Counted from the stretch's first letter, positions 5,827 to 23,525 are shown. The stretch: 64,000 bases of DNA from Cellvibrionaceae bacterium (GCA_045430295.1 JAILXX010000006.1:1-64000); one strand, 5' to 3'. Notes: a model not told the origin generated them from the sequence alone. Made by a program: numbers and translations.

Positions 5827-6537
5827 ATGAATACGTTTCGCGGCGCATTTTTTTATTTTATTATTTACTTTACCGTTGTGCCTTACGGTATTTTTGGCCC
5901 CACGGTCTGTCGATTACTACCCTTTAAAGTTCGTTTCCCTATGCTGGTTTCATGGAACCGTTTAGTGATTTTTTTGCTACGTGTAATCTGCGGTGTGAAG
6001 GTGAATATTCAAGGGAAAGAAAATATTCCAGACAAGCCTTGCGTGGTGCTCAGCAATCACGACTCCACACTGGAAACCATCGTATTACAAACCTTGTTTA
6101 ATCCTCTGTGTACGGTGTTAAAAAGAGAACTGCTGCGAATTCCATTTTTTGGCTGGGCACTAGCAGCCTTGCTTCCCATCGCCATCGATCGCGCGTCGCC
6201 ACGAGAAGCGATTCGTCAGCTTTCCGGTAAAGGCATTTATCGCATTACGGAAAAGCAGCATAGTCTGTTAGTGTTTCCGGAAGGCACCCGAAATCCAACA
6301 AACAAACCCAATAAATGGGCCAGAGGCGGTGCCACAATCGCTATTGAATCTGGCGCCGCAATATTACCGGTTGCTCATAACTGTGGTGATTACTGGCCTT
6401 ACGATGCTATCGCGAAAAAACCAGGCACTATTACCTTTGTTATCGGTAAACCCATTCCCTCTCAAAATAGAGACAGTAAAAGTTTAACAGAAGAAGCACA
6501 GAATTGGGTTGCCGAACAACGGGCCTTAATGAACTGA
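5827..6537 (+). CDS. 1-acyl-sn-glycerol-3-phosphate acyltransferase (PlsC/LPLAT family)
   Basis: NHDSTLE (H-x4-D) and FPEGTRN motifs with an N-terminal TM segment. Positional equivalent of Pseudomonas PA0005. Confidence 0.75.
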   Translation: MNTFRGAFFYFIIYFTVVPYGIFGPTVCRLLPFKVRFPMLVSWNRLVIFLLRVICGVKVNIQGKENIPDKPCVVLSNHDSTLETIVLQTLFNPLCTVLKRELLRIPFFGWALAALLPIAIDRASPREAIRQLSGKGIYRITEKQHSLLVFPEGTRNPTNKPNKWARGGATIAIESGAAILPVAHNCGDYWPYDAIAKKPGTITFVIGKPIPSQNRDSKSLTEEAQNWVAEQRALMN

Positions 6538-6572: not shown

Positions 6573-7970
6573 TTATTCTTGATAAGCCATCGATGCAGAT
6601 TTTTCCACGGGCTCGCCGGCAACACTGTCTGGTAACAGCCACACTTCCACACGGCCATTTTTGGTATTGGAAATTTTCTGACCTACCGCCGCCAATGGCA
6701 TTACCGTTCCCAACCCCAAGGTTTTATTAACCGGTATACCACTTTTAAACAGCGCTGATCTCACAGCGGTGGCTCTTAATTTAGACAGCACATCCGAACG
6801 CTTACCGGTTTGGCTTTTTACTTCATCATTAAAACCCACCAACACTAACTTTTTATGCTGATTTTCAGGCTTTGCCATAAAATTCTGTAAACGGCTAACA
6901 TCCATCAGGGCTTTATTATCTAACCGCGAACTGCCACGATTAAATCGAAAGTTTACCGATAAGCGATCGCCGTTATACATCAACTCACGATAGGCTTGTG
7001 GTGCATTCACAAAATCTTCTTGCTTCACCGCCTGAATATTTTGTGAGATGTAACCCACCTGAGCCACAACTTCCTGACCTTTTTCGCTTTGGCAAAAACT
7101 CACAAATTCACGAATGTCATCCGTAACATTACGTTCCGGGGTATAAAGGTATAAGCGGCGAGTGAGAGGGTAGTCTTCCGTGGCAACAGATAAATGACTT
7201 GGCGCTATGGCCTGGGTTCCTTCATCGGAAACAGCTAACGCTTTCGCATTTCGAATTGAGGCAATGCCAGAGAATCCTATAGCATAGGGATCTCGTGCCA
7301 CAGTATCTGAAAGCTCATCGTTAGATTCGTAGCGCTTAGCGCTATCATCTAGTTGATAAGTCTTTTTCAAGATAAGACTTTTAAATGTATCCCAAGTACC
7401 TGAGTTATTGTCTCGGGCATGGAGACTAATGGCTGCATTAACCCCACCTAATTGCTGCCAATTATTGATTTCACCAGAAAAAATTTGCGCAATCTGAGTA
7501 GTGGTTAAACTGCCAATATTATTGGTTTTGTTAACCAAAATGGCTAAGCCATCAATAGCAACAGTGTGCTCCGACGCTGTGGAACGCATGTAACCAAATC
7601 TTTCCAGTAAGCTAACTTCCTTCTCTTTAATGGGGCGAGACGACATACCAATATCCGCTACACCAGCATCTAAAGAACGGTACCCTGTACTAGAGCCGTG
7701 AGCCGCTACCCAAATAAGCGCATTCGGGCTTTCACCTTGAATGCGAAATTTATTCTCGCCAGTAATATCAATCCGTACACTGGGAATATTTTTACTTTCA
7801 AGATACGCTTTTGCGCAATGGGGAATTAATTTGGCCCCTAAAGTATTGGAACCGTGAATAGTTAAATGAAGAGCTGGCAACGTCGACGCGTTTATTGGTA
7901 ACGCCCAAGACAATAGGCTGCCAAGAATAATACGGGTAGATCGAGTTATAAACAGAGTTAAAGCTGACAT
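6573..7970 (-). CDS. Exported fusion protein: PstS-like phosphate-binding (PBP) domain plus C-terminal OmpA-like peptidoglycan-binding domain
   Basis: Signal peptide, a PstS-like core (SGIASIRNAKALAVS...), and a C-terminal OmpA_C-like segment (NFRFNRGSSRLDNKALMDVSRLQ...LVGFNDEV...GRVEVWLLP). Confidence 0.65.
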   Translation of the reverse strand: MSALTLFITRSTRIILGSLLSWALPINASTLPALHLTIHGSNTLGAKLIPHCAKAYLESKNIPSVRIDITGENKFRIQGESPNALIWVAAHGSSTGYRSLDAGVADIGMSSRPIKEKEVSLLERFGYMRSTASEHTVAIDGLAILVNKTNNIGSLTTTQIAQIFSGEINNWQQLGGVNAAISLHARDNNSGTWDTFKSLILKKTYQLDDSAKRYESNDELSDTVARDPYAIGFSGIASIRNAKALAVSDEGTQAIAPSHLSVATEDYPLTRRLYLYTPERNVTDDIREFVSFCQSEKGQEVVAQVGYISQNIQAVKQEDFVNAPQAYRELMYNGDRLSVNFRFNRGSSRLDNKALMDVSRLQNFMAKPENQHKKLVLVGFNDEVKSQTGKRSDVLSKLRATAVRSALFKSGIPVNKTLGLGTVMPLAAVGQKISNTKNGRVEVWLLPDSVAGEPVEKSASMAYQE

Positions 7971-8040
7971 GCATAAATCCTAATATTGTTAGGATTTATA
8001 GGGTAAAAAACTCATATGACAGTTTTGTTAAACAAACATT

Positions 8041-8078
8041 ACAACGCCAGACGCGTTGAACAAGGCGTCTGGCGTTGT
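8041..8078 (-). terminator. Strong rho-independent terminator ending the minus-strand operon 19784-8088
   Basis: Perfect 12-14 bp stem AACGCCAGACGC / GCGTCTGGCGTT with a 10-nt loop. The minus-strand RNA follows with GUAAUGUUUGUUUAAC. Confidence 0.6.
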
Positions 8079-8087
8079 AATGATACG

Positions 8088-8345
8088 TTAATGTTTCTCT
8101 AACACTTCTGAGAGCGCCTCAATTCTTTCTTGCATAGCTGAAGTTATTTCATCTGCTCGCAAGCGATTTACAATATTATTCAGTACCCGCTTTTCATTAT
8201 CATCAATGACTCCATCACGGGTTGCGATATCAATAATTTCATCTAGCTCCTTCTCATCTAACTTACCATCATTGGCAAAGCAATTGATGGAGTGAAAGGT
8301 CATTTCTAGATAGTCTCTACTTTCTGTCATTGTTATATCCCTCAT
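8088..8345 (-). CDS. Small acidic helical protein, tentatively TerB-like (85 aa)
   Basis: DGKLDEKELDEIIDIATRDGVIDDNEKRVLNNI pattern of paired acidic helices typical of TerB-type domains. Last gene of the operon, 3 bp after the preceding gene. Confidence 0.4.
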   Translation of the reverse strand: MRDITMTESRDYLEMTFHSINCFANDGKLDEKELDEIIDIATRDGVIDDNEKRVLNNIVNRLRADEITSAMQERIEALSEVLEKH

Positions 8346-8348
8346 TCA

Positions 8349-8915
8349 TTATTTAAGAGTTGTATTTAAGTATTGCCGAATATCGCGTTTTTCAACATGC
8401 TGATCCAGCCACTGCTTAAATTCGTCGACTTTTGTAAAATCATCCCCTAACTTTTTACGATAACGGGCTTTCAGTGTTTCTTCTTGTCGTTCTAAGCGAA
8501 TGTTTCGCTGCCAAGCATCGGTAAATATTTTTGGAAGTTTATTATGTATATCTAACTGCTGAAGCAACTTCCACTCACCTTTATCTAGCCAGGCTTCATC
8601 ACAACTTGTGCAAAGCTCTAGACGATGATTAATATCTCTTCCTATTTGAAAGCGACTCATAAATTTAGAACACTTCGGGCACAACTTTGCTTCACTGCTA
8701 TCTTCAGTAATCACATCTTCAGCTATTTCAGCAACACTGTTTTCAGCATGCTGATCAATCCAGTACCGATAATTCATTAGCGATAACAAAGAACCATCAC
8801 ATTTTGGACATACGGCTGCCAGTAGTCCTGGAGATATCTCTTTGGGCTCTAGTTGATAACCTTTGCATTGTGGGCAATCCACATTTACTCCGTTTATTAT
8901 TACTCTGGTAAACAA
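8349..8915 (-). CDS. Double zinc-ribbon protein (YfgJ/TFIIB-ribbon-like), 188 aa
   Basis: Two CxxC...CxxC ribbons (CPQC...CPKC and CPKC...CTSC). Overlaps the upstream gene by 16 bp (translational coupling). Confidence 0.55.
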   Translation of the reverse strand: MFTRVIINGVNVDCPQCKGYQLEPKEISPGLLAAVCPKCDGSLLSLMNYRYWIDQHAENSVAEIAEDVITEDSSEAKLCPKCSKFMSRFQIGRDINHRLELCTSCDEAWLDKGEWKLLQQLDIHNKLPKIFTDAWQRNIRLERQEETLKARYRKKLGDDFTKVDEFKQWLDQHVEKRDIRQYLNTTLK

Positions 8916-9733
8916 CAGCGCTTGTAACGCTTACCACTACCACATGGACAGGGGCCTTTTTTTCTCTGTCGAATGTCATCCTCTATACTGAGAACGTCTT
9001 GCTTGTAAAAATCTGATAGCCGCTGAAATAGTTTTGGATGTTTTTTCTTTAACATTTTTGGGCGCTCAAAAAAGTATTCTGAAGCTACAGCAAAGAATTC
9101 AACTTTACTCGTTCCACCATACGCTCGAATATTGCTTTTTCCCTTATCAATATCTTGTATTTTTCCCTCAATAAATGAAAACCAAGGAATCGCAAAAGCA
9201 TACTCTTTCAATCTTTCAGGAAATCCATCTGTATCACCATCAGCCATATCCACTAAATGGGCAAACTCGTGAATACCCACATTCCGCTTATCGCGAATAT
9301 TTTCAAAACCTGCGTAAAGGTCAGGCTTACTCAAGGCCATTTTTCCAGCCATAGGTCCTGAGCCCACCATACCAGTTATCATAGAATCCGGTTGTTGGCA
9401 TTCAAAATTTTCATTAAAAGCCGCTGGTAATAGATAAACGCCCTTTAAATTCAAGTAGTGCCACTTTGGAAAGCCCCATACCGGAATAATGGCACTGGCA
9501 GCAACTAGTAACCTATCTTCATCAGTAACAGAGAATTGACCAGATTCAATATCTGTCGTTTGTAAAAATAGCAAAGCTCGTTTTTGAAAAATAAGCTTGT
9601 CTTTAAAGGAAAGCTTCCGATAAAACTGTACCTTATCTTCTAAAAATTGACTCCATTCAGATTTCCATAATCCTGACTCTTGCAATTCTGGTTTATAAAA
9701 TATTTCCCAAACGCCCTTTATCCAGCTAAGCAT
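8900..9733 (-). CDS. MtfA/M90-like zinc metallopeptidase with C-terminal SEC-C metal-binding motif
   Basis: HEFAH (HExxH) motif followed by DMADGDTDG. C-terminus GPCPCGSGKRYKRCC is a SEC-C motif. Overlaps the rhomboid gene by 8 bp. Confidence 0.65.
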   Translation of the reverse strand: MLSWIKGVWEIFYKPELQESGLWKSEWSQFLEDKVQFYRKLSFKDKLIFQKRALLFLQTTDIESGQFSVTDEDRLLVAASAIIPVWGFPKWHYLNLKGVYLLPAAFNENFECQQPDSMITGMVGSGPMAGKMALSKPDLYAGFENIRDKRNVGIHEFAHLVDMADGDTDGFPERLKEYAFAIPWFSFIEGKIQDIDKGKSNIRAYGGTSKVEFFAVASEYFFERPKMLKKKHPKLFQRLSDFYKQDVLSIEDDIRQRKKGPCPCGSGKRYKRCCLPE

Positions 9734-10298
9734 GCTTTATTTCCCGAAGCCGTTTTATTTTTGTATGAAGCACAGCATATAAAATACCACTGAGTACGCC
9801 AAAAATATGGTATTCAAAAGAAACACCATTCTTTAGAGGTAACAAGCCGAGTGCCATTCCCCCATAAAATACCAGCACGACAGTTGCCATAAAGAAATGC
9901 TTTAAACTCTTATCAACCCATGCCAAAGCTATCAATAATCCCCAAAGTCCAAATATCCAACCACTAGCTCCGATGTGAATAGCAGGCCTACCAAATAACA
10001 ACACCAAAATACCACTGCTCACAATAATAAAAAGACTGGCATAACAATAGAAACGTATGGGTTTTAATAAACACAATGCACTTAATAAACTTAGTCCCGC
10101 AAGATTATTTATTAGATGAGAATGACTATTGTGTATAAAAGGTGCCGTAAATATGTGATACCAACGCTCGAATGATCTGGGAATAACGCCGAGGTATTCT
10201 ATAGGCCAAATCGCTAAAGTCTTAATGATATGCACTACCACTATGACAGTGATTAAAACCGAGAGTAGTTTTATTCTTCCGGCAAGAAATTTTGTCAT
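9726..10298 (-). CDS. Rhomboid-family intramembrane serine protease
   Basis: TM2 F-x-H-x3-H-L-x2-N motif (FIHNSHSHLINN), TM4 GASGWIFG (GxSG catalytic Ser), TM6 catalytic His (YHIFGVLSG). About 6 TM segments. Confidence 0.75.
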   Translation of the reverse strand: MTKFLAGRIKLLSVLITVIVVVHIIKTLAIWPIEYLGVIPRSFERWYHIFTAPFIHNSHSHLINNLAGLSLLSALCLLKPIRFYCYASLFIIVSSGILVLLFGRPAIHIGASGWIFGLWGLLIALAWVDKSLKHFFMATVVLVFYGGMALGLLPLKNGVSFEYHIFGVLSGILYAVLHTKIKRLREIKHA

Positions 10299-13200
10299 TC
10301 TTTACGACTTGTGATTGGTTTTGTCTCTTCTTTTTTAATATCAGCTTCCAAAATTCTTAACTGCTGAGATATGTCACCCATACGGTCATGAGTACGAAGA
10401 TCAATCTCCAGCTTTTTATCCATGGTTCGTACTAGGGGTGAAATGGTATGTTCAATGGTATCGGCCAATACTCTGAGTATTTTATCGATACCTGGAACAG
10501 GCTCATTCACTACTTGTACATTTGCCTTACTCGCCTCTACTGCTGACGTGAGTTTATCCACGACATAGAGCAAGGCATCATTGCTATCTTCATCTTTACT
10601 GTCTTGGGGTTTATCAGCGCTAGTTTTTACCATCGCGGATAGTTCATCAACACCATTTACTAGATCCATCAATTGCGCAACGATTTTTCCACCGGTGTCT
10701 GCACTGTCACCACCCATAGCTTTATTACGTAAAAAGTCCTTCTTTATTTGCTCCCAGCGCTGGTTTTCTTCCTCTGTGATATTGCCTCTTAATTCCGCTA
10801 ATTTCAGTAAGTTATCCTCGGCCCCGGTTGTCAGTAACTGTGCCTCACCCAAGTAATGATCTTGGATCATTTGCATTAATTCTTTCTCATTCATAACCGC
10901 AGAGATTTTTTCAGTCATCTTGTTCATGTTGCGATAACTACCCTGCAGCTTAAAGGCCGGTTCAGTACGGTATTGATCGTTCTGTGCGGCAGATGCGATA
11001 TATTGCTGATTGATTTTCAATACCACATCTTGGACTACAAACATTTTCTTTAAAATTTCAGTGATTTCATTAATCTCAGCACCACTGTATTGGTGACTAA
11101 GATCTGTGGTTACTGCGTCCCCGCCTTTAGCCATATCAATCAGTTTATAAACATCGGCCATTTCTCTCACCGCCAACGGTGCAAGAACTGGGTTAGAAGT
11201 GAGGGCGTTTTCCACATAACTCAATGCAAACTGCTCATCCATGCCACCCAAGATATCACCCAAATTGTAGATGTCGGCACGGTTTGCCAGCATGTCTGGT
11301 ATTTTGAATGCCTCCCCGGATTCGGTATAAGGGTTACCGGCCATAATCACACAGAACTTCCGACCACGCATATCATAGGTTTTTGTTTTCCCCTTCCACA
11401 CACCTTCAATACGACGCGTTCCATCACACAGAGAAATAAATTTCTGTAAAAACTCCGGATGCGTATGCTGAATATCATCCAGATAGAGCATCACGTTATT
11501 GCCCATTTCTAGAGCGAGGTTCAGCTTTTTCAGCTCCTGGCGTGCAGTCGCGTTCGGTGCTTGTTGTGGATCAAGGGATAGCACATCGTGTCCAAGTGAT
11601 GGACAGTTGATCTTCATAAAGATCAATCCTAATCGATTCGCCACATATTCCATCAAGGTCGTTTTACCATAACCAGGGGGCGAGATCATCATTAACAAGC
11701 CCATCAAATCCGTACGCTTGTTTTCTCCCACCGTCCCCATTTGTTTAGCCAAGTTATCCCCTATCAACGCTAAATAAGATTCATTAATCAATCGGTTCCG
11801 AACAAAAGAACTGAGGGGCCTTGGTTTAAACTCTTCTAGGCGTAAAGCTTCTCTTCGTTCACTGATAACATCCTGACGTAGCTGGTGATAACGATGAAAA
11901 CTCGGTACTACTTCATTGTGGTGCTTCTGTAATCGCAGTAAAAAATCATCCAGCGCAAAGCTCAGTTGGCGATTTTGAATAGTGGGGTGATCTCCCAACA
12001 AACCCTCAACGCTAATTTGCAAATCCACTTCAGTACTGCGACGATCAATACGCTCATCCGCATTGATCAATGCTGCGGCTTCTGGAATATACCGAGCGTA
12101 AATTTCCATGCCTTTCTCTTCTACCATAGCCTGTAACCAAGCAATGGAAAGCTTCCAACGCTCCGCAGGCCAACCCAACAATTTCTCCAAGCTTTGTTGA
12201 TAGCGACGCCAAGTAGCATCATCCATGGAGCGTTTCAACTCTTCCACAAGTTCTTGTGCATATTTACTTCCAATAAATTCAAGGCGCTCTTGGGATAGCT
12301 CGGCTACTAGATACTGAGTGGCTCGCTGGATATCTAAGCTTGAAACCTTTATTGGATGAATATCAATAAAGCGCTGCATCTCTGCTGAAACTTCTTCTTT
12401 TAATAAATTCAGTGCTGTACTGCTAGAAAACACCGCCTGCAATTGCGCTGCGGATTGCGCTCGCTCTTGCCAAGATTCGTAAGAAATATTTCCTTTATCA
12501 GTCGGAAATACACTTTTTATATTGGCCCAGAAAACTTGCGCTAGCGCTCGGCTTTTAGGATCAAAACGCAATAGATCGGCACTTTCCATTACCGGCAGAA
12601 TAGCTTGAATTAACAGGCTAGCATCGTGATCATGAATACCTTTTTCATAACCTTCTTTATAACGGGGAGCCGCAAATTGTTTTACTACATTAGCAATGCC
12701 ATCTTCTTCCAATGAGGCTGTTTTTAGAGTTTGCAACGATAGTGAATTTTGTTGTTTCTCTGCAGCTTCCAGAACTAACGAAGCTAAATATTCTGCTCGA
12801 TAGACTTCATTACTTTCAGATTCCAATGGCATTTCCCAATAGGCTTCCATAGATTGCAAGCTGTCATGGTTAATGCTCTCGTAATAGTTAGTTCCTGTTA
12901 GATGGAAATTCAACTCATGATTCCGGGGAATAATAGTCAAATCCAACTCTTGGTTATTCACAGAGAATCGATGACGCGGACCCAATTTAATAACATTGCC
13001 ACCCTCTTCAAAAATATCGCTTTTATCACGCAGTGAGCGCAATGCTTGCTCTTTAATGGCTTTGAAGCGGGATTCAATATCATCTGCTTTTACAGCACTG
13101 TCTAATTCTCGTAACTTCTCTACCTGCTCTCGGATCTTAATAACCAAAGCATCCGAGGCAAAGTAAGTATTCAAATCATCAGCGTCGGTAAACTTTAAGG

Positions 13201-15583
13201 AGCGTTTTTCAATACTGGATAATATACGCCCTGCAGCATCAGTAACCGACTGCGCCTTACGCTGCCTTTCATCCAGTAACTGCTGTTTATGGCTTTCGAA
13301 GGACTCATAGATTTCCTCACGTTTATCCATAATATCTGCGAGAAACTGATCATACTCACTGAACTGACTTTCCAGCTCTTCAAGTTGCACCAGTAAACGT
13401 GACAGCTGCTCATCACATTTTTCCGGTGTTGTCGCCAAACTCAACGCATTAGTGATGCTCTGAGAGAACAATTTGAATTGTGCTCCAAACTGCGCAATGG
13501 CTTCCTCTGAGCCAAGGTTCTTTTGCTTGTGTTTTGCTGTGGCCTTGCTTTGATTAAGCTTTGAGTAAACTTGAGAAATCGCATCAATAATGCGAGTACG
13601 CACAGTGGCATCATCCACCTTTAACGTACCCATCAGCTCAGACAATAAATCCAACCCCATAGCGGTTGATTCGATAACCTCTACAATGGGCTTCAATTGC
13701 GCAATAGTAGTAGCTTCTCCGACATCTTTATTGATACTGTCAATTTTTAATGTGTACGGTTCTAGCGCTTTATCCTCTGAGAGGAAGGAAATGGTTTCTC
13801 CACTGAGATTTTCTTCTAAGCCTCGTAAGGCTTCGCTTAGCTCTTCAATTCTTGAAACATTGATATAACGATATTCTTTAATCGTAGTTAAATGGCCACG
13901 CTGATGTCTAAGCTTAGCCAAGGCTTCCACATACTCTTCCACCGTCTGCCAACTTTCCGGGCGAATCGACTGAACTAATTGCTCCTGATCTCGCTCGGCT
14001 TCCACCATGGTTTTGGCAGACTGCTGACGAATACTTTCAACTTTCTCAAACTCATCAATAACCAGCTCAGAGGTTTCTGAAATCTCTTTCAGGGTACTGG
14101 CAATGGTTGCAGTTTCTTTATCGTCTAACCAGTAATGGTCATCGAAAATCTTTCTTGCAGCTTTACTTAACTCTTCGTATAAGCGTAACGAAACTGACTG
14201 ATTGGAGATCATACGGTAAATACCGTATAAATCTGAAACACCACGGACTAATTCCGAATTACCAATTCGGCCATAGAAACTTTTACTGGCGGGCGCCTTG
14301 CTAGCAAATTCTGTACTTTCATAAGGGGTTTGCCAGATTTGCATAGGATGAACACGTGTAGGTTCTTGTTCCGCTGAAAAAATAACTAAGCGGCCATTTT
14401 CGGCCAGTGCATAACCATGTCCATAGATAGGATTTTGTAATTCCTTTTCAATCAGGTTATAAGCAAATAAACCAACAATGCCCTCTTCTTGCTCATAAAA
14501 TACATAGAGAACATCTTCACCATTAGGGGAACGAATTACACGCTTGAATTTAAGCCCACCTGTATTTTCATCGAAGGTCTTACATTCACCCGTTTGTAAA
14601 TAATAGCCCCCAGGAAAAATTAATCCGTGGTCTTCCGGTAATTGCACACAAGACTCACCAATAGCATCTACACGGATAACACTCTCTGTGAGAGTGTTAT
14701 AAATAAGATACCGCCAATTTTCTTCTCGATAAGGACGAATCTTTAATAGAATCAGGCTTCCAACAGCAGCGTAACTGATTTGACCGTCGTCTAAAGATTG
14801 TGTTTTATCTTCTACGGGCTCTCGGTAAATGCCCAGTCCATCTTCTGTATTATTCTCAATCTTTACCGTTAAATCACCGCCAACAGTTTCTACAAACACC
14901 GTATCGAGAATATTGATATGGGGATGGCGGCCATGAATACTGTCTTCTCGACTTGTTTCGATCCATTCAAAATCATGCTTAGGTGGGAGTTGGATATCTC
15001 GCTCACCTCGATTATCAATATATTGAATAGTTTGGCCGTTTGCAGAAACCGACCAACGAAACACGCGAATATCATCTAGGCGCTCACCAATTTGAAATCC
15101 AGCAAGCAATTTTCCATTTTTAATGGTGAGCTCTATTAACTTAGTATGCTTGTAATAGCGATACAGCTCTTCAAAATCATTAACGAAACTGGCTTGCTTG
15201 AGAAAACTACCATCCAGTGACACAGGTACCATTTCATGGTGACCATTCTCTTCCTTGATATCGAAGAGGGCAAAAACATCTTCTATCTTGGTTTCTTTCT
15301 TTAACCCAATAAAGACGTTATAGCCAAATAAAAGGTGACTACCTACCTGGACAATATCACGAGCGACGCAATTATTTTCTGTACGCACCCGCACACGGGA
15401 AAGCACGTCCATATCGGAGCTACCAAACTCCTCCAAGCGTGCACGATTTAATCCGTTAATTTTTTCCTGAAGTTTATTGCCCTGCTCTTCCAAACGCTTG
15501 CGAATAATTTCATAAGCGCCGCCTTCAGCCACAGCGTTATCCACTAATTCAGCAGATTCAACACCCTTATTTTTCTCTTCCAT
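10295..15583 (-). CDS. Giant 1762-aa protein with a MoxR/AAA_5-type ATPase module (about residues 1280-1480). The long N-terminal region is of unknown type (possibly beta-rich then coiled-coil), and the C-terminal tail is acidic.
   Basis: Walker A PPGYGKTT (encoded at about 11657-11680), Walker B-like MLYLDDIQ, AAA_5-like NPYTESGEAFKIPDMLANRADIY. Overlaps the rhomboid gene by 4 bp. Confidence 0.8.
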   Translation of the reverse strand: MEEKNKGVESAELVDNAVAEGGAYEIIRKRLEEQGNKLQEKINGLNRARLEEFGSSDMDVLSRVRVRTENNCVARDIVQVGSHLLFGYNVFIGLKKETKIEDVFALFDIKEENGHHEMVPVSLDGSFLKQASFVNDFEELYRYYKHTKLIELTIKNGKLLAGFQIGERLDDIRVFRWSVSANGQTIQYIDNRGERDIQLPPKHDFEWIETSREDSIHGRHPHINILDTVFVETVGGDLTVKIENNTEDGLGIYREPVEDKTQSLDDGQISYAAVGSLILLKIRPYREENWRYLIYNTLTESVIRVDAIGESCVQLPEDHGLIFPGGYYLQTGECKTFDENTGGLKFKRVIRSPNGEDVLYVFYEQEEGIVGLFAYNLIEKELQNPIYGHGYALAENGRLVIFSAEQEPTRVHPMQIWQTPYESTEFASKAPASKSFYGRIGNSELVRGVSDLYGIYRMISNQSVSLRLYEELSKAARKIFDDHYWLDDKETATIASTLKEISETSELVIDEFEKVESIRQQSAKTMVEAERDQEQLVQSIRPESWQTVEEYVEALAKLRHQRGHLTTIKEYRYINVSRIEELSEALRGLEENLSGETISFLSEDKALEPYTLKIDSINKDVGEATTIAQLKPIVEVIESTAMGLDLLSELMGTLKVDDATVRTRIIDAISQVYSKLNQSKATAKHKQKNLGSEEAIAQFGAQFKLFSQSITNALSLATTPEKCDEQLSRLLVQLEELESQFSEYDQFLADIMDKREEIYESFESHKQQLLDERQRKAQSVTDAAGRILSSIEKRSLKFTDADDLNTYFASDALVIKIREQVEKLRELDSAVKADDIESRFKAIKEQALRSLRDKSDIFEEGGNVIKLGPRHRFSVNNQELDLTIIPRNHELNFHLTGTNYYESINHDSLQSMEAYWEMPLESESNEVYRAEYLASLVLEAAEKQQNSLSLQTLKTASLEEDGIANVVKQFAAPRYKEGYEKGIHDHDASLLIQAILPVMESADLLRFDPKSRALAQVFWANIKSVFPTDKGNISYESWQERAQSAAQLQAVFSSSTALNLLKEEVSAEMQRFIDIHPIKVSSLDIQRATQYLVAELSQERLEFIGSKYAQELVEELKRSMDDATWRRYQQSLEKLLGWPAERWKLSIAWLQAMVEEKGMEIYARYIPEAAALINADERIDRRSTEVDLQISVEGLLGDHPTIQNRQLSFALDDFLLRLQKHHNEVVPSFHRYHQLRQDVISERREALRLEEFKPRPLSSFVRNRLINESYLALIGDNLAKQMGTVGENKRTDLMGLLMMISPPGYGKTTLMEYVANRLGLIFMKINCPSLGHDVLSLDPQQAPNATARQELKKLNLALEMGNNVMLYLDDIQHTHPEFLQKFISLCDGTRRIEGVWKGKTKTYDMRGRKFCVIMAGNPYTESGEAFKIPDMLANRADIYNLGDILGGMDEQFALSYVENALTSNPVLAPLAVREMADVYKLIDMAKGGDAVTTDLSHQYSGAEINEITEILKKMFVVQDVVLKINQQYIASAAQNDQYRTEPAFKLQGSYRNMNKMTEKISAVMNEKELMQMIQDHYLGEAQLLTTGAEDNLLKLAELRGNITEEENQRWEQIKKDFLRNKAMGGDSADTGGKIVAQLMDLVNGVDELSAMVKTSADKPQDSKDEDSNDALLYVVDKLTSAVEASKANVQVVNEPVPGIDKILRVLADTIEHTISPLVRTMDKKLEIDLRTHDRMGDISQQLRILEADIKKEETKPITSRKE

Positions 15584-15607
15584 ATCACTCTCTCATCAAT
15601 GTTTGTG

Positions 15608-15628
15608 AAAAGCGGGGCCCTGCCCCGC
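15608..15628 (-). terminator. Intra-operon GC-rich hairpin plus U-tract between the flotillin and giant-ATPase genes (candidate attenuator or partial terminator)
   Basis: GCGGGGC-cct-GCCCCGC perfect stem. On the minus-strand RNA it is followed immediately by UUUU (plus-strand AAAA at 15608-15611). Confidence 0.4.
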
Positions 15629-15644
15629 AATTTCCAACAGCAAC

Positions 15645-17597
15645 TTAGCTGTTGGTTTCTTCACTAACAGAGGTGGTTGTGGCTTTAGGGCCAACAAACT
15701 TCTCGATCAAGGTTGAAATGGTATCGCTTTTATCTGCTAAACCATCCACGGCTTTACCGATGGAGAGAGATTTCGCAAAGTTGTTAAAGAAGTGATCTTC
15801 ACCACCCACAATATCGATATTGGCTTTCTGCAGAGCCACCGCCAATACTTCTGCATTTTCTTTGGCAATGTCTTTACCCGCTTCGATAGAGGCCATGGCT
15901 TCTTTCAATGCAGTTTCCAAGCTCATGCGGAATTCTTCGTGGGCACGGGCATCAGTGCTCATGCTATTCATAGCATCAAACTTCTCTACCAAACCATCTG
16001 CTTCAGCCTTAAATTGTTCGCGAGTCACGTCAGCACCCGCCATACCAATTTCTTTCTCAGACTGAGCTTGCGCAAGACCCTTCGCCGCAATTACATCGGC
16101 TTCTGCTTTACCTGTACCCAAGTGTGCATCAGCTTCTGCATCGCCTTTTGCTTTAATAACATTGGCTTCAGCAACACCTTCTTTTTCCAAGGAGTAAGCT
16201 TTGGCTTCCTGTACTTTCGCATCGGCCAAACCTGGAGCAGCTCTTTCTGCTTGAACACCTTCTGCCAATTTCTTCTTAGAGTCAGCTTCTTTTGCAGCAG
16301 CTTCCAGTTGCGCTTGGGCAAGCGTGGTGATTTCAATAGCTTTATGTTTTGCAGAAAGCTCTTCTGCTTCCGCAGCTTTTACTTGCTTAACCTTTTCTTC
16401 ATCTGCTTGTGCTTCCGCAGCCAATACTTGAGTCTGCTTAGCCCGATCCGCTTCAGAAACTTCACGTACTTCTTTAATACGTTCTTCTTCAATGGCTACC
16501 GTTTTATCAACCGCAACACGCTCGCGAATTACATTTGCAATTTCTTTCTTCTCTACTTCAACGGCTTTTTCAGCTTCAATACGTTGTAATTCAACTTCTC
16601 GCTCACGAGAAACAATTTCTAAATCGCGTGCCCTTGTCACTTTTTCCACTTCAATAGCAACAGCACGTTGGCGATTCTGTTCCGCTACTTCAATTTCTCG
16701 CTTCTGATTTTCAGTTTGTACAGACAAATCCTGCTCAACTTGAATAGTCGTCGCTTCGGCTTTACGGCGCTCTTCTTCCTGAACCTTTTTGGTTTCCGCT
16801 TCTTCTCGTGCTCGAATAGTGGCAATTTCTCGCTCTTGCTTAGCTTCTGCATCAGCTTGTTGGCGTTCAAGCTCTAACATAGCCTCTACGGTTTCAACAT
16901 TTTTCTTCTTAATGGCTAATTCTTCATCACGTTCGAAAATATTGGTTTTAACATTTTGATTAGCCGTTAGTTCAGTAATTTTTCGAATACCTTCTGCATC
17001 GAGAATATTTGAAGGATCCAATGAAGCTTTAGGCGTCTGCTCCAAATAATCAATAGCAACGTCTTCCAACACATAGCCGTTTAAATCATCGCCAATAACC
17101 TGAACAATCTTGTCTCTAAATTCCTGACGGTTTTCAAACAATTTCACAAATTCGATTTGTTTACCGACAGTCTTCAGAGCTTCTGAAAATTTTGCATTAA
17201 ATAGCTGATTTACTGCATCTTTATCCGAGGCCCGCCCTGCACCAATGGATTTTGCTACTTTTAATACATCATCAGCAGTCTCATTAACTCGTAAATAGAA
17301 AGCAACTGTGATATCTGCCCGCATGTTATCTGCACAAATCAAACCATCTTTACCACGGCGATCTACCTCCAAAGTAATCAATGAAATTTTCATTAATTCC
17401 CTTTTATAGATAATCGGATACACCAAAGCACCGGTGAAATGTACTTTCGGACGAGCTGTCATATCATTGACAATCAAAGCTGTGCCTTGCTCTACTTTCA
17501 CATAGAAAGCTTTAAACAAAGCCGCAAAGCCCATCAATATAATAAAGGTAATGCCAATTCCAGTTGCGATAGGCATTAATACAGATAAATCAGCCAT
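15645..17597 (-). CDS. Flotillin-like SPFH/band-7 protein (YqiK-like), 650 aa
   Basis: N-terminal TM helix, SPFH core, and a long E/A/K/Q-rich coiled-coil region typical of bacterial flotillins. Confidence 0.8.
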   Translation of the reverse strand: MADLSVLMPIATGIGITFIILMGFAALFKAFYVKVEQGTALIVNDMTARPKVHFTGALVYPIIYKRELMKISLITLEVDRRGKDGLICADNMRADITVAFYLRVNETADDVLKVAKSIGAGRASDKDAVNQLFNAKFSEALKTVGKQIEFVKLFENRQEFRDKIVQVIGDDLNGYVLEDVAIDYLEQTPKASLDPSNILDAEGIRKITELTANQNVKTNIFERDEELAIKKKNVETVEAMLELERQQADAEAKQEREIATIRAREEAETKKVQEEERRKAEATTIQVEQDLSVQTENQKREIEVAEQNRQRAVAIEVEKVTRARDLEIVSREREVELQRIEAEKAVEVEKKEIANVIRERVAVDKTVAIEEERIKEVREVSEADRAKQTQVLAAEAQADEEKVKQVKAAEAEELSAKHKAIEITTLAQAQLEAAAKEADSKKKLAEGVQAERAAPGLADAKVQEAKAYSLEKEGVAEANVIKAKGDAEADAHLGTGKAEADVIAAKGLAQAQSEKEIGMAGADVTREQFKAEADGLVEKFDAMNSMSTDARAHEEFRMSLETALKEAMASIEAGKDIAKENAEVLAVALQKANIDIVGGEDHFFNNFAKSLSIGKAVDGLADKSDTISTLIEKFVGPKATTTSVSEETNS

Positions 17598-17668
17598 AAT
17601 GGTTACTCCGTTTCCGTTTTTTAACGTTATAAAGGCTATTAATATTAATCAGGGAATTTCTGATTCTT

Positions 17669-18361
17669 TTATTTTCCTGCGAATTCATTTTCTGAGATAA
17701 CGCGATAGGCATTCTCCGCTTCTAGTCGCTCAAATAACACTACACGATCACCTTTGCTAAAAGTCTCTTGGTCTGTCGATCTCACTTTCAAAATAAGTCC
17801 AGCACCACCATCTTCTAATATGGCTTCGCCAAAGTTGTTATCAACCTTACTGGTTTTCACAATAGCTGTTTGACCCAGAATATGTTTTATCGTTTGCTGC
17901 TGTGCTTTTTGAAATAAAGGCCTTAGTGGCTTGATTAAAAACGCCGTAATCATCACTGCGATATACAACACACCCACTAATACGGGAATACCTGCTATAA
18001 ACTTCAATAAATTCCCGGGTATAAAGCCAAAGAAGAAGTGAACGATGTAATAGCAGATAAACCAACCAAACAAAGAAACAAACGAAATAATGACAGTAAC
18101 AGGCACACCCTGAAGACCAAAGCGCAACATTAAACCAGCTAGTACATTGGCATTGCTTAAACCGGAATCTGGATTTACATCTAAAGCGCCATCAGCATCG
18201 GGGATATCGAAATCTAATGCATCAATTTCCACAAACCCTAAAACTGCCACCAACCAGTACAAAACTGTGATTGCTAAAAAGAAGGTAAAGAAGGCTGTAG
18301 GAAATGATGAAATATTTTGGTAAAACGGGTTCATATTTTCCGATAACAATATTGCAAACAT
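17669..18361 (-). CDS. YqiJ/NfeD-like membrane protein (flotillin operon partner)
   Basis: Multi-TM N-terminal half plus a C-terminal short NfeD-type beta-barrel-like segment (GEAILEDGGAGLILKVRS...KGDRVVL). Lies immediately upstream of the flotillin gene, as yqiJ-yqiK in E. coli. Confidence 0.6.
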   Translation of the reverse strand: MFAILLSENMNPFYQNISSFPTAFFTFFLAITVLYWLVAVLGFVEIDALDFDIPDADGALDVNPDSGLSNANVLAGLMLRFGLQGVPVTVIISFVSLFGWFICYYIVHFFFGFIPGNLLKFIAGIPVLVGVLYIAVMITAFLIKPLRPLFQKAQQQTIKHILGQTAIVKTSKVDNNFGEAILEDGGAGLILKVRSTDQETFSKGDRVVLFERLEAENAYRVISENEFAGK

Positions 18362-18393
18362 TTCCTACTCCTTTTCTTTTTTTATGATCAGAC

Positions 18394-19080
18394 TTATTTC
18401 TTATTCTTCAGTCTTTCGAGAATATCATCAGCGCTTTTACCCTGTGGGGCAATACCTGCTTTCTCCAGTTTTTCCTGTAAAGAATCCCCATAACTTTCTT
18501 CCGCTAACTCATTAGCCGCTGCCATTTGTGCTGACTTTAACGACTGCTTCTCTTTAATACGCTCCAAAGAATCCATAGCAGTACGCATTTTTGAATTAGA
18601 TCCACTATGCCTTTCCGCGACTGCGGCTTGTGCTCGCTGAACACTTTCAGTGGCTTTTACAGTATCAATCTGCTGCTTGATTCGCTTTAAGTTACTTTCT
18701 GTTTGCTTGATCGCTGTACGTAACTGTTCTGCACTAGCCTCGTAACCTTTACCTGCCTCTTCTTCTTGAGCTAGCTGGTTTTCCAGGTTTGCAATTTTTT
18801 GTGCTACTTCACGGGCTAAATCTTCATCGCCTTTTTCTAGTGCTTTAATTGCATAACCTTCATTTTCTGAAATATTTTTTTTCAAATTTTTAGATTTTTC
18901 TTGGGACAGCTTTTGTCGCGCAATGATTTCTGCCAATGCATCTTTCGATTGCTTTAGTTCTTCACCAGCTTCTCGCACTTCTTGATCCAAGATTCTAAGT
19001 GCTTGGCTATCCACAATAGCTTCGCCTGCTTCATTTACACCACCCTTGAGGGCGGTCATCATTTTTGCCCAAATGTTCAT
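18394..19080 (-). CDS. PspA/IM30 (Vipp1, ESCRT-III superfamily) protein
   Basis: MNIWAKMMTALKGGVNEAGEAIVDSQALRILDQEVREA is a typical PspA N-terminus. All-helical coiled-coil, 228 aa. Strong SD AAGGAG. Confidence 0.8.
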   Translation of the reverse strand: MNIWAKMMTALKGGVNEAGEAIVDSQALRILDQEVREAGEELKQSKDALAEIIARQKLSQEKSKNLKKNISENEGYAIKALEKGDEDLAREVAQKIANLENQLAQEEEAGKGYEASAEQLRTAIKQTESNLKRIKQQIDTVKATESVQRAQAAVAERHSGSNSKMRTAMDSLERIKEKQSLKSAQMAAANELAEESYGDSLQEKLEKAGIAPQGKSADDILERLKNKK

Positions 19081-19115
19081 TGTGTAATCTCCTAATTAAA
19101 TCTATCTCTGTTTAT

Positions 19116-19748
19116 CTAACTGGCTATCTCTACTGGAAATTCTAAAAATTCTGCATAAGCTTCCGTAGCTTGAATTACATTATTTGCTAGCACTTCAATT
19201 TCAAATATCACATTCGACAATTTTGATGTTGAGCTCAACGCACCAAACATATGGTAATAATCTTCATCTTTACCCGTTTTATCCAAGCTAATTGTGGAAA
19301 GCGGGAAGTACTTATGTGTACGTAACACAGTTTCATTAAACAGTGTCACATCTGTCACTTCAGTCACCGACCAAAGTACAGACTCAGCAATAATCTGCTC
19401 TCCTGACACCGTAAGAAAAATCGGTAGCTCACCATAGTTATTCATTACTATGTGTAGCGACGATTCGACACCATCAATCAACTCAATAGTCACTGATCCA
19501 CTGGTAACTAAATCTGTTTCCTGCAATGCCTTCAATAAACTCGTTGTTGTCCAATGATTTGCCGTATCAACCATAAGGCTTTCTCCTTCTAACATATTTC
19601 CTGAAATAGGTAGCCGCAGTGACTTTTCCACCTCGGCCAGACGCCTGGCATTTTCGGGCAGTATCCATACTTCTTTCTTTACAAGTCCCTGTTCCCGCAG
19701 CCGTCGCCGGTATTCCCGTTGGTAGTGTGCTGATGATTTTTTGTTCAT
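19116..19748 (-). CDS. Hypothetical protein, first gene of the operon: basic N-terminus plus possible YjfI/DUF2170-like domain
   Basis: The ORF track gives a TTG start at 19784. The ATG at 19748 is preferred because all three operator-like palindromes then lie outside the CDS. The arrangement mirrors E. coli yjfI-yjfJ (YjfJ is the PspA paralog). Confidence 0.5.
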   Translation of the reverse strand: MNKKSSAHYQREYRRRLREQGLVKKEVWILPENARRLAEVEKSLRLPISGNMLEGESLMVDTANHWTTTSLLKALQETDLVTSGSVTIELIDGVESSLHIVMNNYGELPIFLTVSGEQIIAESVLWSVTEVTDVTLFNETVLRTHKYFPLSTISLDKTGKDEDYYHMFGALSSTSKLSNVIFEIEVLANNVIQATEAYAEFLEFPVEIAS

Positions 19749-19754
19749 GGGTCC

Positions 19755-19813
19755 ACTATAGTTAATCACATGTAATGATGTCAATAAATTACATGTAATG
19801 ATTTTACATGTAA
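19755..19813 (-). promoter_or_regulatory. Candidate sigma70 promoter (TTGACA-N18-TATAGT on the minus strand) with three copies of the 10-bp palindrome TTACATGTAA
   Basis: -10 rc at 19755-19760 and -35 rc at 19779-19784. Palindromes at 19789-19798 and 19804-19813 (perfect) and 19766-19775 (TCACATGTAA, inside the spacer). If correct, the mRNA would have a very short leader or none. Confidence 0.35.
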
Positions 19814-20089
19814 CTACCCTTGCTTATTCTCTTCAGCATTTGTGCAGCTATATAAATGAACAAATCAGGGACTGTTTACTCAAGAAAAACCAGGTGTGAG
19901 AAGGTATAACTAGTGAAAATAAAGACAATCCATCACTCCTTGATATTTATTATTGTTATAGATGACCACCTGAAATCGCTACAGGCGGTCTATATTACTC
20001 TCTATTTAACTCTTTATGCCAGATGCTTAAATCAAAACCAGTAGCCTATTTCAGCATTAAGAGCACTGCATAATGTAAGTACTTACTAC

Positions 20090-21046
20090 TCAATAGCGAT
20101 CCTGTAAGTGTACCAACATTAAAGCTGAGACGTCATCGGCTGCTGTCTCGGTTACCCAGTGACTAACCCCCTCTAAAATTTCAAAATGGTATTCGGCAAC
20201 AACATAACCCTCTGAACGCTCCATTGAAGAAATACTCACGTAGCTATCGGCGTCACCCCAGATTTGTAAGGTAGGCACTGTGATCGCGCTGGCACCATAG
20301 GTCAGAATCCAGGTCCAATCTCTAGTGCGATAATAGTTAAGGATGGCATCAACGGTTTCTACATCACCCAGTTTTTCAACATACAAATCAATGGAATCTT
20401 GCGGGGTGTCCTCATAAATCCAGCGCATGTATTCATGATCATTCGCCACAAAGGTTTCTTCAAAACCTTCAGAGGTAAAATCTGCCACATAACCCTCACG
20501 CTCAATTTCGACCACATCATTATTAGCAAAGAAGTTATCGATAATAGCTTGCGGATGAGGAACAGACATGGCGGTTAGAGTGATCACCCTATCCGGATAC
20601 ATAGCCGCAAGAATCCAGGCAGTCAACGCACCGGAATCATGGCCTGCTAAGTGGAACCGATAAATGCCCAAAGTGTTAGCCATATCGATAACATCTTGAG
20701 TCCGTAAACTCGGATGATAGGCTTCCGGATTAGAGGGGCGCATCTCGGGTGCAAAACCCCGCTGATTAGGCGCAATCACATAGTAGCCTTCTGCGGCCAA
20801 AGTTTTGATAATGTCGGTATATTGATCGGCTGTGGTAGGAAAGCCATGGAGCAGAATAACTGGAGTGCCATCCGTTGGGCCGGCCGTTAACCCATCGAAG
20901 ACGCCTTCGCTGGTAGTAATATCAATACTTTTTATATTTGTATCAAAAGCTGATGGTGAGACTGAAGGAGTAGCCTCACCACTATTATTGCCACCGCAAG
21001 ATATCAGGCACAGGCAGAAAAGAGGGAGTAAGAAACGTTTCATCAC
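20090..21046 (-). CDS. Alpha/beta-hydrolase lipoprotein of the epoxide-hydrolase/haloalkane-dehalogenase type (Asp nucleophile)
   Basis: Lipobox LISC|G; HGFPT (HGxP oxyanion motif); GHDSG (Sm-x-Nu(D)-x-Sm). Confidence 0.65.
   Translation of the reverse strand: MMKRFLLPLFCLCLISCGGNNSGEATPSVSPSAFDTNIKSIDITTSEGVFDGLTAGPTDGTPVILLHGFPTTADQYTDIIKTLAAEGYYVIAPNQRGFAPEMRPSNPEAYHPSLRTQDVIDMANTLGIYRFHLAGHDSGALTAWILAAMYPDRVITLTAMSVPHPQAIIDNFFANNDVVEIEREGYVADFTSEGFEETFVANDHEYMRWIYEDTPQDSIDLYVEKLGDVETVDAILNYYRTRDWTWILTYGASAITVPTLQIWGDADSYVSISSMERSEGYVVAEYHFEILEGVSHWVTETAADDVSALMLVHLQDRY

Positions 21047-21107: not shown

Positions 21108-23525
<2,418 letters not shown>

Follow-up and report, generated by a model that had tools for sequence, protein, structure and literature searches.

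The region downstream of gyrB in the Cellvibrionaceae bacterium genome GCA_045430295.1 raises the question of how about 14.5 kb of DNA came to lie between gyrB and a plsC-like gene that directly follows it in a number of other Gammaproteobacteria. In the stretch analysed here (JAILXX010000006.1:1-64000, 64,000 nucleotides, hereafter the window), eleven genes, all on the minus strand, occupy positions 6573-21046 between the plsC-like gene (5827-6537, plus strand) and gyrB (21108-23522, minus strand), the last gene of a dnaA-dnaN-recF-gyrB cluster. A preliminary description had regarded this block as an accessory insertion, and its gene content and coordinates were reproduced by our open reading frame (ORF) and domain analyses, apart from a corrected start of bacA. 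The block consists of three units: a gene for a lipoprotein alpha/beta hydrolase beside gyrB, a nine-gene operon encoding BacA, PspA, a flotillin-like protein and a giant DUF3686 AAA+ ATPase among others, and a PstS-OmpA fusion gene beside the plsC-like gene. We consider, with a probability of about 0.6 for the reading as a whole, that the interval between gyrB and plsC has long been a flexible locus, in which three independent units have been reshaped by deletions, and not one island, and that the operon is a BacA-repressed membrane-stress module.

Among 80 gammaproteobacterial gyrB loci sampled for synteny, whose GyrB proteins are 70-80% identical to that of the window, a plsC homologue (Pfam Acyltransferase, E=4.9e-22 for the window 1-acyl-glycerol-3-phosphate acyltransferase) lies downstream of gyrB in 28. 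The gap between the two genes is only 28-518 bp in 16 of these, typically with glyS-glyQ-lpxL next, so that gyrB followed by plsC and glySQ is a widespread arrangement, as had been assumed; in the window, glyS, glyQ and lpxL lie on the far side of the plsC-like gene from the block. The gaps in the other 12 loci hold 1-9.5 kb of unrelated and mostly ordinary cargo (sigma-54 activators, two-component systems, AhpF, a GMC oxidoreductase with an MFS transporter, DUF808, a small outer membrane protein), and no integrase was found among the ten largest cargo ORFs tested. None of the eleven block genes lies within 10 kb of gyrB in any of the 80 loci (0/80). In the Cellvibrionaceae loci L002-L008, unrelated DNA stands beyond gyrB, namely response regulator-TPR/aroE/dprA genes, a sigma-54 activator, or a TonB-dependent receptor with GH20. 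Thus, genes have been gained repeatedly at the 3' flank of gyrB, and synteny breaks off there. The best matches of the window GyrB belong to Cellvibrionaceae, Endobugula, Gilvimarinus and Microbulbifer, none of them above 80% identity among the retrieved loci, and a second assembly, GCA_041156585.1, has the same locus with 99.6% DNA identity.

The three units of the block differ in composition and are transcribed separately at least in part. The hydrolase gene (20090-21046, minus strand; Abhydrolase_1, E=2.9e-22) lies 62 bp after gyrB, and about 275 bp of unique spacer stands between it and the operon promoter region. The operon runs from promoter to terminator (about 8028-19813, about 11.8 kb), and the hairpin terminator (8028-8091, minus strand) is an inverted repeat with 31-nt arms and a U-rich tract, with a folding energy of -32.9 kcal/mol (z=-6.2). 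The PstS-OmpA gene (6573-7970, minus strand; PBP_like_2, E=1.3e-32; OmpA, E=6.6e-11), in which a PstS-like periplasmic binding domain is joined to an OmpA peptidoglycan-binding domain, is a separate transcription unit. Guanine-plus-cytosine (GC) content is lowered over much of the block. At third codon positions (GC3) it averages 0.337 in the nine operon genes versus 0.455 in the 42 other genes of the window (Mann-Whitney p=6.5e-6), and the pooled codon usage of the operon lies at a distance of 0.100, compared with 0.049 +/- 0.011 and a maximum of 0.095 for 500 random subsets. In contrast to this deviant composition, the hydrolase gene is core-like (GC3 0.43, rank 17 of 42), and PstS-OmpA is low-normal (0.38). 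The orthologous operons of L082, L083 and L084 also have low GC3 relative to their own neighbours, which argues that the low GC3 is an intrinsic property of the operon rather than a mark of recent import.

The units also differ in their distribution among relatives. L082 (a Logan contig) and Teredinibacter sp. KSP-S5-2 (L084/L085) carry the operon directly after dnaA-dnaN-recF-gyrB, and so does Gilvimarinus sp. SDUM040013 (L089) with a version of six genes; L082, L084 and L089 have neither the hydrolase nor PstS-OmpA here and carry different genes beyond the operon in each case. Conversely, hydrolase and PstS-OmpA are found in the nearest relative, GCA_041156805.1 (GlyS 92%, GlyQ 96%, PlsC 84-85% by tblastn or pairwise comparison, PstS-OmpA 82% identical), where a 1.4-kb Band_7-NfeD pair takes the place of the 12-kb operon segment. 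Its contig L092 starts with sequence homologous to the hydrolase and to the intergenic DNA before it, reaching to about 20 nt from the window's gyrB stop, with gyrB itself not on the contig, and has the order ABH-ABH'-Band_7-NfeD-PstS-OmpA (N-terminus), ABH being the alpha/beta hydrolase; it overlaps L093, which has the order PstS-OmpA-plsC-glyS-glyQ-lpxL-integrase. The blastn homology between L092 and the window is interrupted from the hydrolase stop (about 20088) to about 8063, where it starts again in the 3' arm of the terminator. A more distant relative, L094 (PlsC 73%, PstS-OmpA about 70-72% identical), has the order DUF3686-M90-ZnR-small protein-Band_7-NfeD-LysR-glyoxalase-FMN_red-PstS-OmpA-plsC, where M90 and ZnR are the peptidase and Zn-ribbon genes of the operon. 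Band_7 and NfeD of L092 and L094 are orthologous (91% and 81% identity, respectively), and PstS-OmpA adjoins plsC in both of the nearest relatives (L093 and L094). Homologues of PstS-OmpA with about 50% identity are spread through Cellvibrionales, and when metagenomes were scanned with it, all matches were distant (41% at most) and none was informative on synteny.

Pairwise identities of plsC and PstS-OmpA give the tree ((window, L093), L094), and for DUF3686 the window protein is sister to that of L094 with 100% bootstrap. Since the operon is present in the window and in L094, it would also have been present in their ancestor. As part of the reading given above, we think it likely that the common ancestor of the window and its two nearest sampled relatives already had the operon 3' of gyrB and 5' of PstS-OmpA-plsC, and the operon probably stood at gyrB in an older Cellvibrionaceae ancestor as well. 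In the simplest scenario, the ancestral order would be gyrB-(ABH)-operon-Band_7-NfeD-...-PstS-OmpA-plsC, from which the window lineage would have lost the stomatin-type Band_7-NfeD pair, the L092/L093 lineage would have lost the operon and duplicated the hydrolase, and other genera would have rearranged the DNA beyond the operon. Between genera, identities are 74-78% for DUF3686, 74-82% for PspA and 76-78% for GyrB, and L084 and L089 are the closest pair for DnaN, RecF, PspA and the flotillin-like protein alike; the divergence of the operon proteins and their quartet patterns agree with those of GyrB, DnaN and RecF, as fits a long residence. No operon copy more than 81% identical was found outside the window species among more than 6600 homologues (best 8000 candidates scored), and any transfer would therefore be old.

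The block and its surroundings are poor in features of mobile DNA, and in this respect the preliminary description, which had reported no integrase, tRNA or direct-repeat boundary, was confirmed by domain searches, a tRNA scan and a repeat search. No tRNA or tmRNA gene occurs in the whole 64-kb window, no direct repeats flank the block (only short imperfect two-copy matches at chance level were seen), and no integrase or transposase domain was detected in the eleven genes with Pfam, NCBIfam and PHROGs, the last of which also gave no phage signal in the block proteins. A tblastn search with the integrase and IS110 sequences of relatives gave no match inside the block, an Rfam search of positions 1-30000 gave no match, and PADLOC defence models gave only weak coiled-coil and SEC-C noise (all E>=3e-4). 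Outside the block, a 23-codon remnant beside lpxL (1594-1662) is 91% identical to the C-terminus of the lpxL-abutting integrase of L093, and positions 1-1600 of the window have low GC (0.38-0.40) with only small ORFs lacking domains; these features suggest that an integrative element beyond glySQ-lpxL has decayed or been replaced. In Teredinibacter sp. KSP-S5-2, real mobile DNA abuts the operon, with a truncated phage-type integrase, an IS110 transposase and low-GC small ORFs directly after it (L084, 17604-24000).

Several observations weigh against an ancestral place of the operon at gyrB. The operon is missing from this locus in the nearest relative, and the contigs L092 and L093 of that genome, which overlap at about 90% identity with a short repeat indel, may represent two strains; the L094 contig was read on its plsC side, and a position of its operon next to gyrB is presumed. 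Other genomes have the operon elsewhere, L083 following pheST-ihfA-merR, L086 following pqiABC and Pseudoteredinibacter (L088) at a further site, and a hybrid operon is carried by the 425-kb Pseudomonas megaplasmid pQBR103 (NC_009444.1, 84437-97641; L101/L102). Close relatives of the three other gyrB-adjacent carriers have no operon there (L004 versus L089, L014 versus L084, L016 versus L082), so that an ancestral scenario needs several losses or relocations, and the neighbor-joining tree of gyrB is star-like and does not order gains and losses. In the DUF3686 tree, Cellvibrionaceae genera are split among three or more clades that they share with other families or orders, with 98-100% bootstrap (the homologues bearing on this conflict being P0018/P0020, P0034, P0049, P0085, P0091 and P0096): Pseudoteredinibacter groups with Oceanospirillales (100%), Teredinibacter and Gilvimarinus group with a Parahaliea metagenome-assembled genome (MAG; 100%), and Exilibacterium, Aurantivibrio and Cellvibrionaceae MAGs group with Alkalimarinus (98%). 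These clades, which mix families, argue that the module has been transferred horizontally between families of marine Gammaproteobacteria over long time scales. It is possible, although in our view doubtful, that only the operon module (about 11.8 kb) is accessory, and that it was exchanged horizontally and landed independently 3' of gyrB in several lineages, through homologous recombination in the flanking core genes or by another route, with the hydrolase and PstS-OmpA as resident neighbours. The conflict between the DUF3686 tree and taxonomy fits this alternative, as do the patchy carriage among close relatives, the distinct codon usage that is kept across hosts, and the finding of the module on pQBR103 and in three further places on chromosomes; moreover, DnaN, RecF and PlsC differ more between genera than the operon proteins do, and the flotillin-like protein, at 87-89% identity, exceeds even GyrB. 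However, the window and L094 have sister copies that share the PstS-OmpA-plsC flank while L093 is nearer to the window, which points to inheritance followed by loss. In addition, neither boundary repeats nor a recombinase accompany the module, the ceiling of 81% identity makes any transfer old, and the quartet pattern of the operon is that of dnaN and recF. It seems unlikely to us that the operon is a recombinase-free, promoter-to-terminator cassette exchanged among marine Gammaproteobacteria, repeatedly captured at the origin-proximal gyrB 3' flank and governed everywhere by a hitherto unrecognised circuit of the BacA N-terminal domain and TTACATGTAA over a near-leaderless sigma-70 promoter.

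The notion of a single genomic island, acquired recently and spanning all 14.5 kb, draws on the interruption of a widely conserved adjacency, on the position of all eleven genes on one strand and on the lower GC over much of the block, but it is hardly tenable. The composition differs among the three units, the hydrolase and PstS-OmpA occur without the operon in the nearest relative and the operon occurs without either of them in Teredinibacter, Gilvimarinus and L082, and the block contains a terminator and a separate promoter that set its parts off from one another; it moreover has no mobility features and is deeply diverged from all relatives, with no near-identical donor. An inversion or translocation around the replication origin, which would have brought the operon and its neighbours to gyrB instead of an insertion, could account for the synteny breakpoint 3' of gyrB in many Cellvibrionaceae (aroE, dprA, TonB-dependent receptor and GH20 in L002-L008) and for the integrase remnant beside lpxL; nevertheless, gyrB and the plsC-glySQ-lpxL flank keep their ancestral relative orientation, which is the signature of insertion or deletion, and we regard a rearrangement as quite improbable. 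Thus, the proposed accessory insertion holds insofar as the interval is expanded, its content varies in relatives without mobility genes and the operon is deviant in composition, but a single insertion is not supported, because the block has three units of differing composition and distribution, the operon adjoins gyrB in other genera, its GC3 bias is shared by its orthologues and its divergence is old and GyrB-like. The genes stand at this locus in several relatives, as expected of an ancestral block, although other relatives are without them and the composition is not core-like. We conclude in favour of the flexible locus with three independent units: the block is old, mosaic and non-mobile, largely ordinary, and of a kind common between core genes.

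Among the inferred parts of a mechanism for the operon, its regulation is the best supported here. A sigma-70-like promoter, TTGACA-18-TATAGT (19784-19755, minus strand; 11 of 12 positions matched in the scan), overlaps three TYACATGTRA palindromes, and promoter and putative operator together span 19755-19813. The three palindromes are the only ones in the 64 kb, where 0.33 would be expected, and all lie within 19766-19813. The order of TTACATGTAA, TTGAC, TYACATGTAA, -10 element and ATG is invariant in seven operon copies, two palindrome copies are invariant in 7 genomes (upstream regions of L082-L089 examined), and the palindrome recurs upstream of the distant pQBR103 homologue (L102, 1340-1440); the TTACATGTAA motif is not mentioned in the relevant papers. 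The bacA ATG follows the -10 element by 6 nt in the window and by 6-8 nt across the seven copies, and this short spacing suggests a leaderless-like bacA transcript.

BacA, encoded by the first gene of the operon (19116-19748, minus strand), is a YjfI/DUF2170 protein with a CesT/Tir-like fold. Its start is the conserved ATG at 19748, giving 210 aa, which replaces the TTG at 19784. The protein matches the NCBIfam equivalog NF050185 with 316.5 bits (cutoff 300) over positions 1-203 of 206, and PF09938 with E=2e-51, whereas the crystal structure PDB 8q8o (E=2e-41) aligns to residues 63-203 only. A basic N-terminal domain of about 45 aa (19614-19748; KSSAHYQREYRRRLREQGLVKKEVWILPEN...), nearly invariant in 8 sequences, is missing from the crystallised 146-aa protein, and the annotation behind the published BacA may be truncated at the N-terminus. 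Against Pfam, this domain gave only a sub-threshold MazE-like match (PF11455, E=0.071), and a single-sequence structure model of BacA was unusable (predicted local distance difference test score 32.7) and gave no N-terminal fold. In P. aeruginosa, BacB to BacF over-accumulate 6-13-fold in a bacA mutant (PMC10948618). Taken together, this de-repression, the conserved candidate operators and the BacA N-terminal domain suggest direct autorepression, where BacA would repress the operon most likely through its N-terminal domain bound to the TTACATGTAA palindromes, which may be the BacA operator.

The other eight operon genes, likewise on the minus strand, encode a set of membrane-associated, ATPase and protease components. 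The second gene (18394-19080) encodes a BacB-like PspA/IM30 family protein (PF04012, E=4.6e-48, 164 bits versus a cutoff of 33.9), which matches TIGR02977 only at E=0.0077, far below cutoff. The third (17669-18361) encodes a 230-aa YqiJ/NfeD-like multi-pass membrane protein, so assigned from its position and from a weak YqiJ_N match below threshold (E=0.025), and 39% identical to the pQBR103 protein at the equivalent position. The product of the fourth (15645-17597), a 650-aa SPFH/flotillin-like protein, is predicted to be a membrane-anchored scaffold with a long coiled coil. It has no Pfam match and no PDB sequence match, and its similarity to FloT is weak (E=5.8e-4, below cutoff), but it is 50% identical over 621 aa to a pQBR103 protein labelled 'SPFH domain-containing protein' in RefSeq. 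It is 83-89% identical to its orthologues in six other operon loci, and 87-89% in the three that include gyrB, and is thereby more conserved between genera than GyrB (76-78%). The fifth gene (10295-15583) encodes a 1762-aa ATPase composed of an N-terminal DUF3686 domain (PF12458; E=8e-208, 690.8 bits), DUF7902 (E=2e-27), a coiled-coil region and a C-terminal AAA+ domain (PF00004 at residues 1298-1417; E=2e-9). DUF3686 is a beta-propeller according to Ravi et al. (PMC11237479). This protein, mislabelled 'DNA repair ATPase' in databases, has more than 6600 scored homologues from the best 8000 candidates of 5.8 billion proteins, and no solved structure of it exists.

The last four genes form a tail that is conserved in L082, L083, L084, L086 and L094, with L094 lacking the rhomboid. 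The sixth gene (9726-10298; Pfam Rhomboid, E=1.5e-15) encodes a rhomboid intramembrane serine protease, present in L082, L083, L084, L086 and L089 and with a 39%-identical counterpart in the PspA operon of pQBR103. The seventh (8900-9733) encodes an MtfA-like M90 zinc peptidase (Peptidase_M90, E=2e-57) with a C-terminal SEC-C metal-binding motif (E=8e-6), whose PDB relatives are 3dl1 and MtfA 9srw, and the eighth (8349-8915) a TFIIB-type Zn-ribbon protein (Zn_ribbon_TFIIB, E=7e-7) that is kept in L082, L083, L084, L086 and L094. The ninth (8088-8345) encodes a small 85-aa protein with no recognised domain, which has orthologues of 78-83 aa (56-80% identity) in the same position in L082, L083, L084 and L094.

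Some further observations concern the units on either side of the operon. In L092 (48-2054), tandem hydrolase copies, 72% identical to each other and 72% and 77% identical to the window hydrolase, lie directly upstream of the stomatin-type Band_7-NfeD pair, and in the window the single hydrolase likewise lies upstream of the flotillin/NfeD-containing operon. The lipoprotein hydrolase may be functionally linked to SPFH systems, or this arrangement may be a coincidence; hydrolase paralogues of 63-67% identity occur in unrelated contexts. In PstS-OmpA, the signal peptide is followed by CATTTAGATATT units (HLDI), four in L092 and two in L093, and by a single HLTI in the window. This in-frame repeat polymorphism (L092 3690-3760, L093 160-190, window about 7880) lies at the point where the assembly breaks between L092 and L093. 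A CTGTCAT upstream of PstS-OmpA was considered as a Pho box, and this reading was dropped as only a half-site is evident.

As for function, the operon would be an envelope and membrane-stress module. PspA, a member of the ESCRT-III superfamily, may form polymers that are organised on a membrane platform of the SPFH/flotillin-like and YqiJ-like proteins and remodelled by the giant AAA+ ATPase, in parallel to the ESCRT-III/Vps4 analogy that has been drawn previously (PMC11237479). The rhomboid, M90 peptidase, Zn-ribbon and 85-aa proteins would then be a lineage-extended proteolytic or regulatory tail that processes or regulates the other components. The main cargo of the locus is a member of a known but poorly characterised operon family, in an extended nine-gene form with two proteases, and it belongs to a widespread, barely studied PspA/ESCRT-III-like membrane system that is tied here to the experimentally studied bac operon of P. 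aeruginosa. The chief interest of the locus lies in its recurrent gyrB adjacency and in the finding on the operator and the N-terminal domain: the domain missing from the crystal structure, together with the invariant palindromes, provides a testable explanation of the reported negative control by BacA.

The operon can be compared with several known systems. Ravi et al. (2024; PMC11237479) defined computationally, and without an established mechanism, a class of operons that combine a CesT/Tir (DUF2170) protein and PspA with YqiJ/YuaF, a band-7/flotillin protein and a novel AAA+ ATPase with coiled-coil and beta-propeller regions. All five components appear to be combined in the window operon, the YqiJ and flotillin matches being weak. 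The rhomboid (0 occurrences in that paper) and the M90/Zn-ribbon tail are not mentioned there, and the phospholipase D found in some operons of the class is absent from the window operon. The pQBR103 operon, with the order YjfI-PspA-rhomboid-DUF2491-DUF350-DUF1190-glutathionylspermidine synthase-like-YqiJ-like-SPFH-DUF3686, merges two PspA operon classes that Ravi et al. (PMC11237479) describe separately. The operon occurs in only 13 of 72,556 plasmid records, several of which are megabase-scale or megaplasmids, and none was found in phages.

Judged by protein matches and gene order, the window operon is homologous to bacABCDEF of P. aeruginosa (PA3732-PA3727), the 'biofilm-associated cluster', whose mutants are defective in biofilm formation (PMC2587700, PMC10948618). 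Both begin with BacA, represented in the window by the equivalog, and have PspA/IM30 second, and the order that follows in the window, membrane protein, SPFH/flotillin-like protein and large ATPase, is that of the described operon class, with BacC-BacE matched by position only. The window operon differs in having nine genes, with the apparent addition of the rhomboid, M90 peptidase, Zn-ribbon and 85-aa proteins, and in its adjacency to gyrB. Furthermore, it has a sigma-70-like promoter with TTACATGTAA palindromes, and the site proposed for P. aeruginosa is of the sigma-54 type. In E. coli, yjfIJ (DUF2170 and a PspA paralogue) and yqiJK (NfeD-like and flotillin-like), compared here by description, belong to the same families (PMC11237479, PMC10948618); unlike the single operon of the window, they are separate loci without the DUF3686 ATPase. 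The block is also distinct from the classical E. coli pspFABCDE system, as no PspF-type sigma-54 activator, PspB or PspC domain was found in it with Pfam and NCBIfam.

With respect to its place in the chromosome, the block resembles integrase-borne genomic islands, which are linked to tRNA genes and bounded by direct repeats, in its interrupted synteny, its variable presence in relatives and, in part, its deviant codon usage. It differs from them in having no integrase, tRNA or att-like repeats, in being a mosaic of units with differing histories, and in its old divergence. A likeness may also be seen to the flexible hotspots between core genes, or regions of genomic plasticity, that are a general concept of bacterial pangenomes. 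The gyrB-plsC junction holds differing cargo in the manner of such hotspots, with no mobility genes among the largest ORFs tested; however, the largest cargo item of the window is kept at gyrB across several genera, and is in this sense more stable than typical hotspot content.

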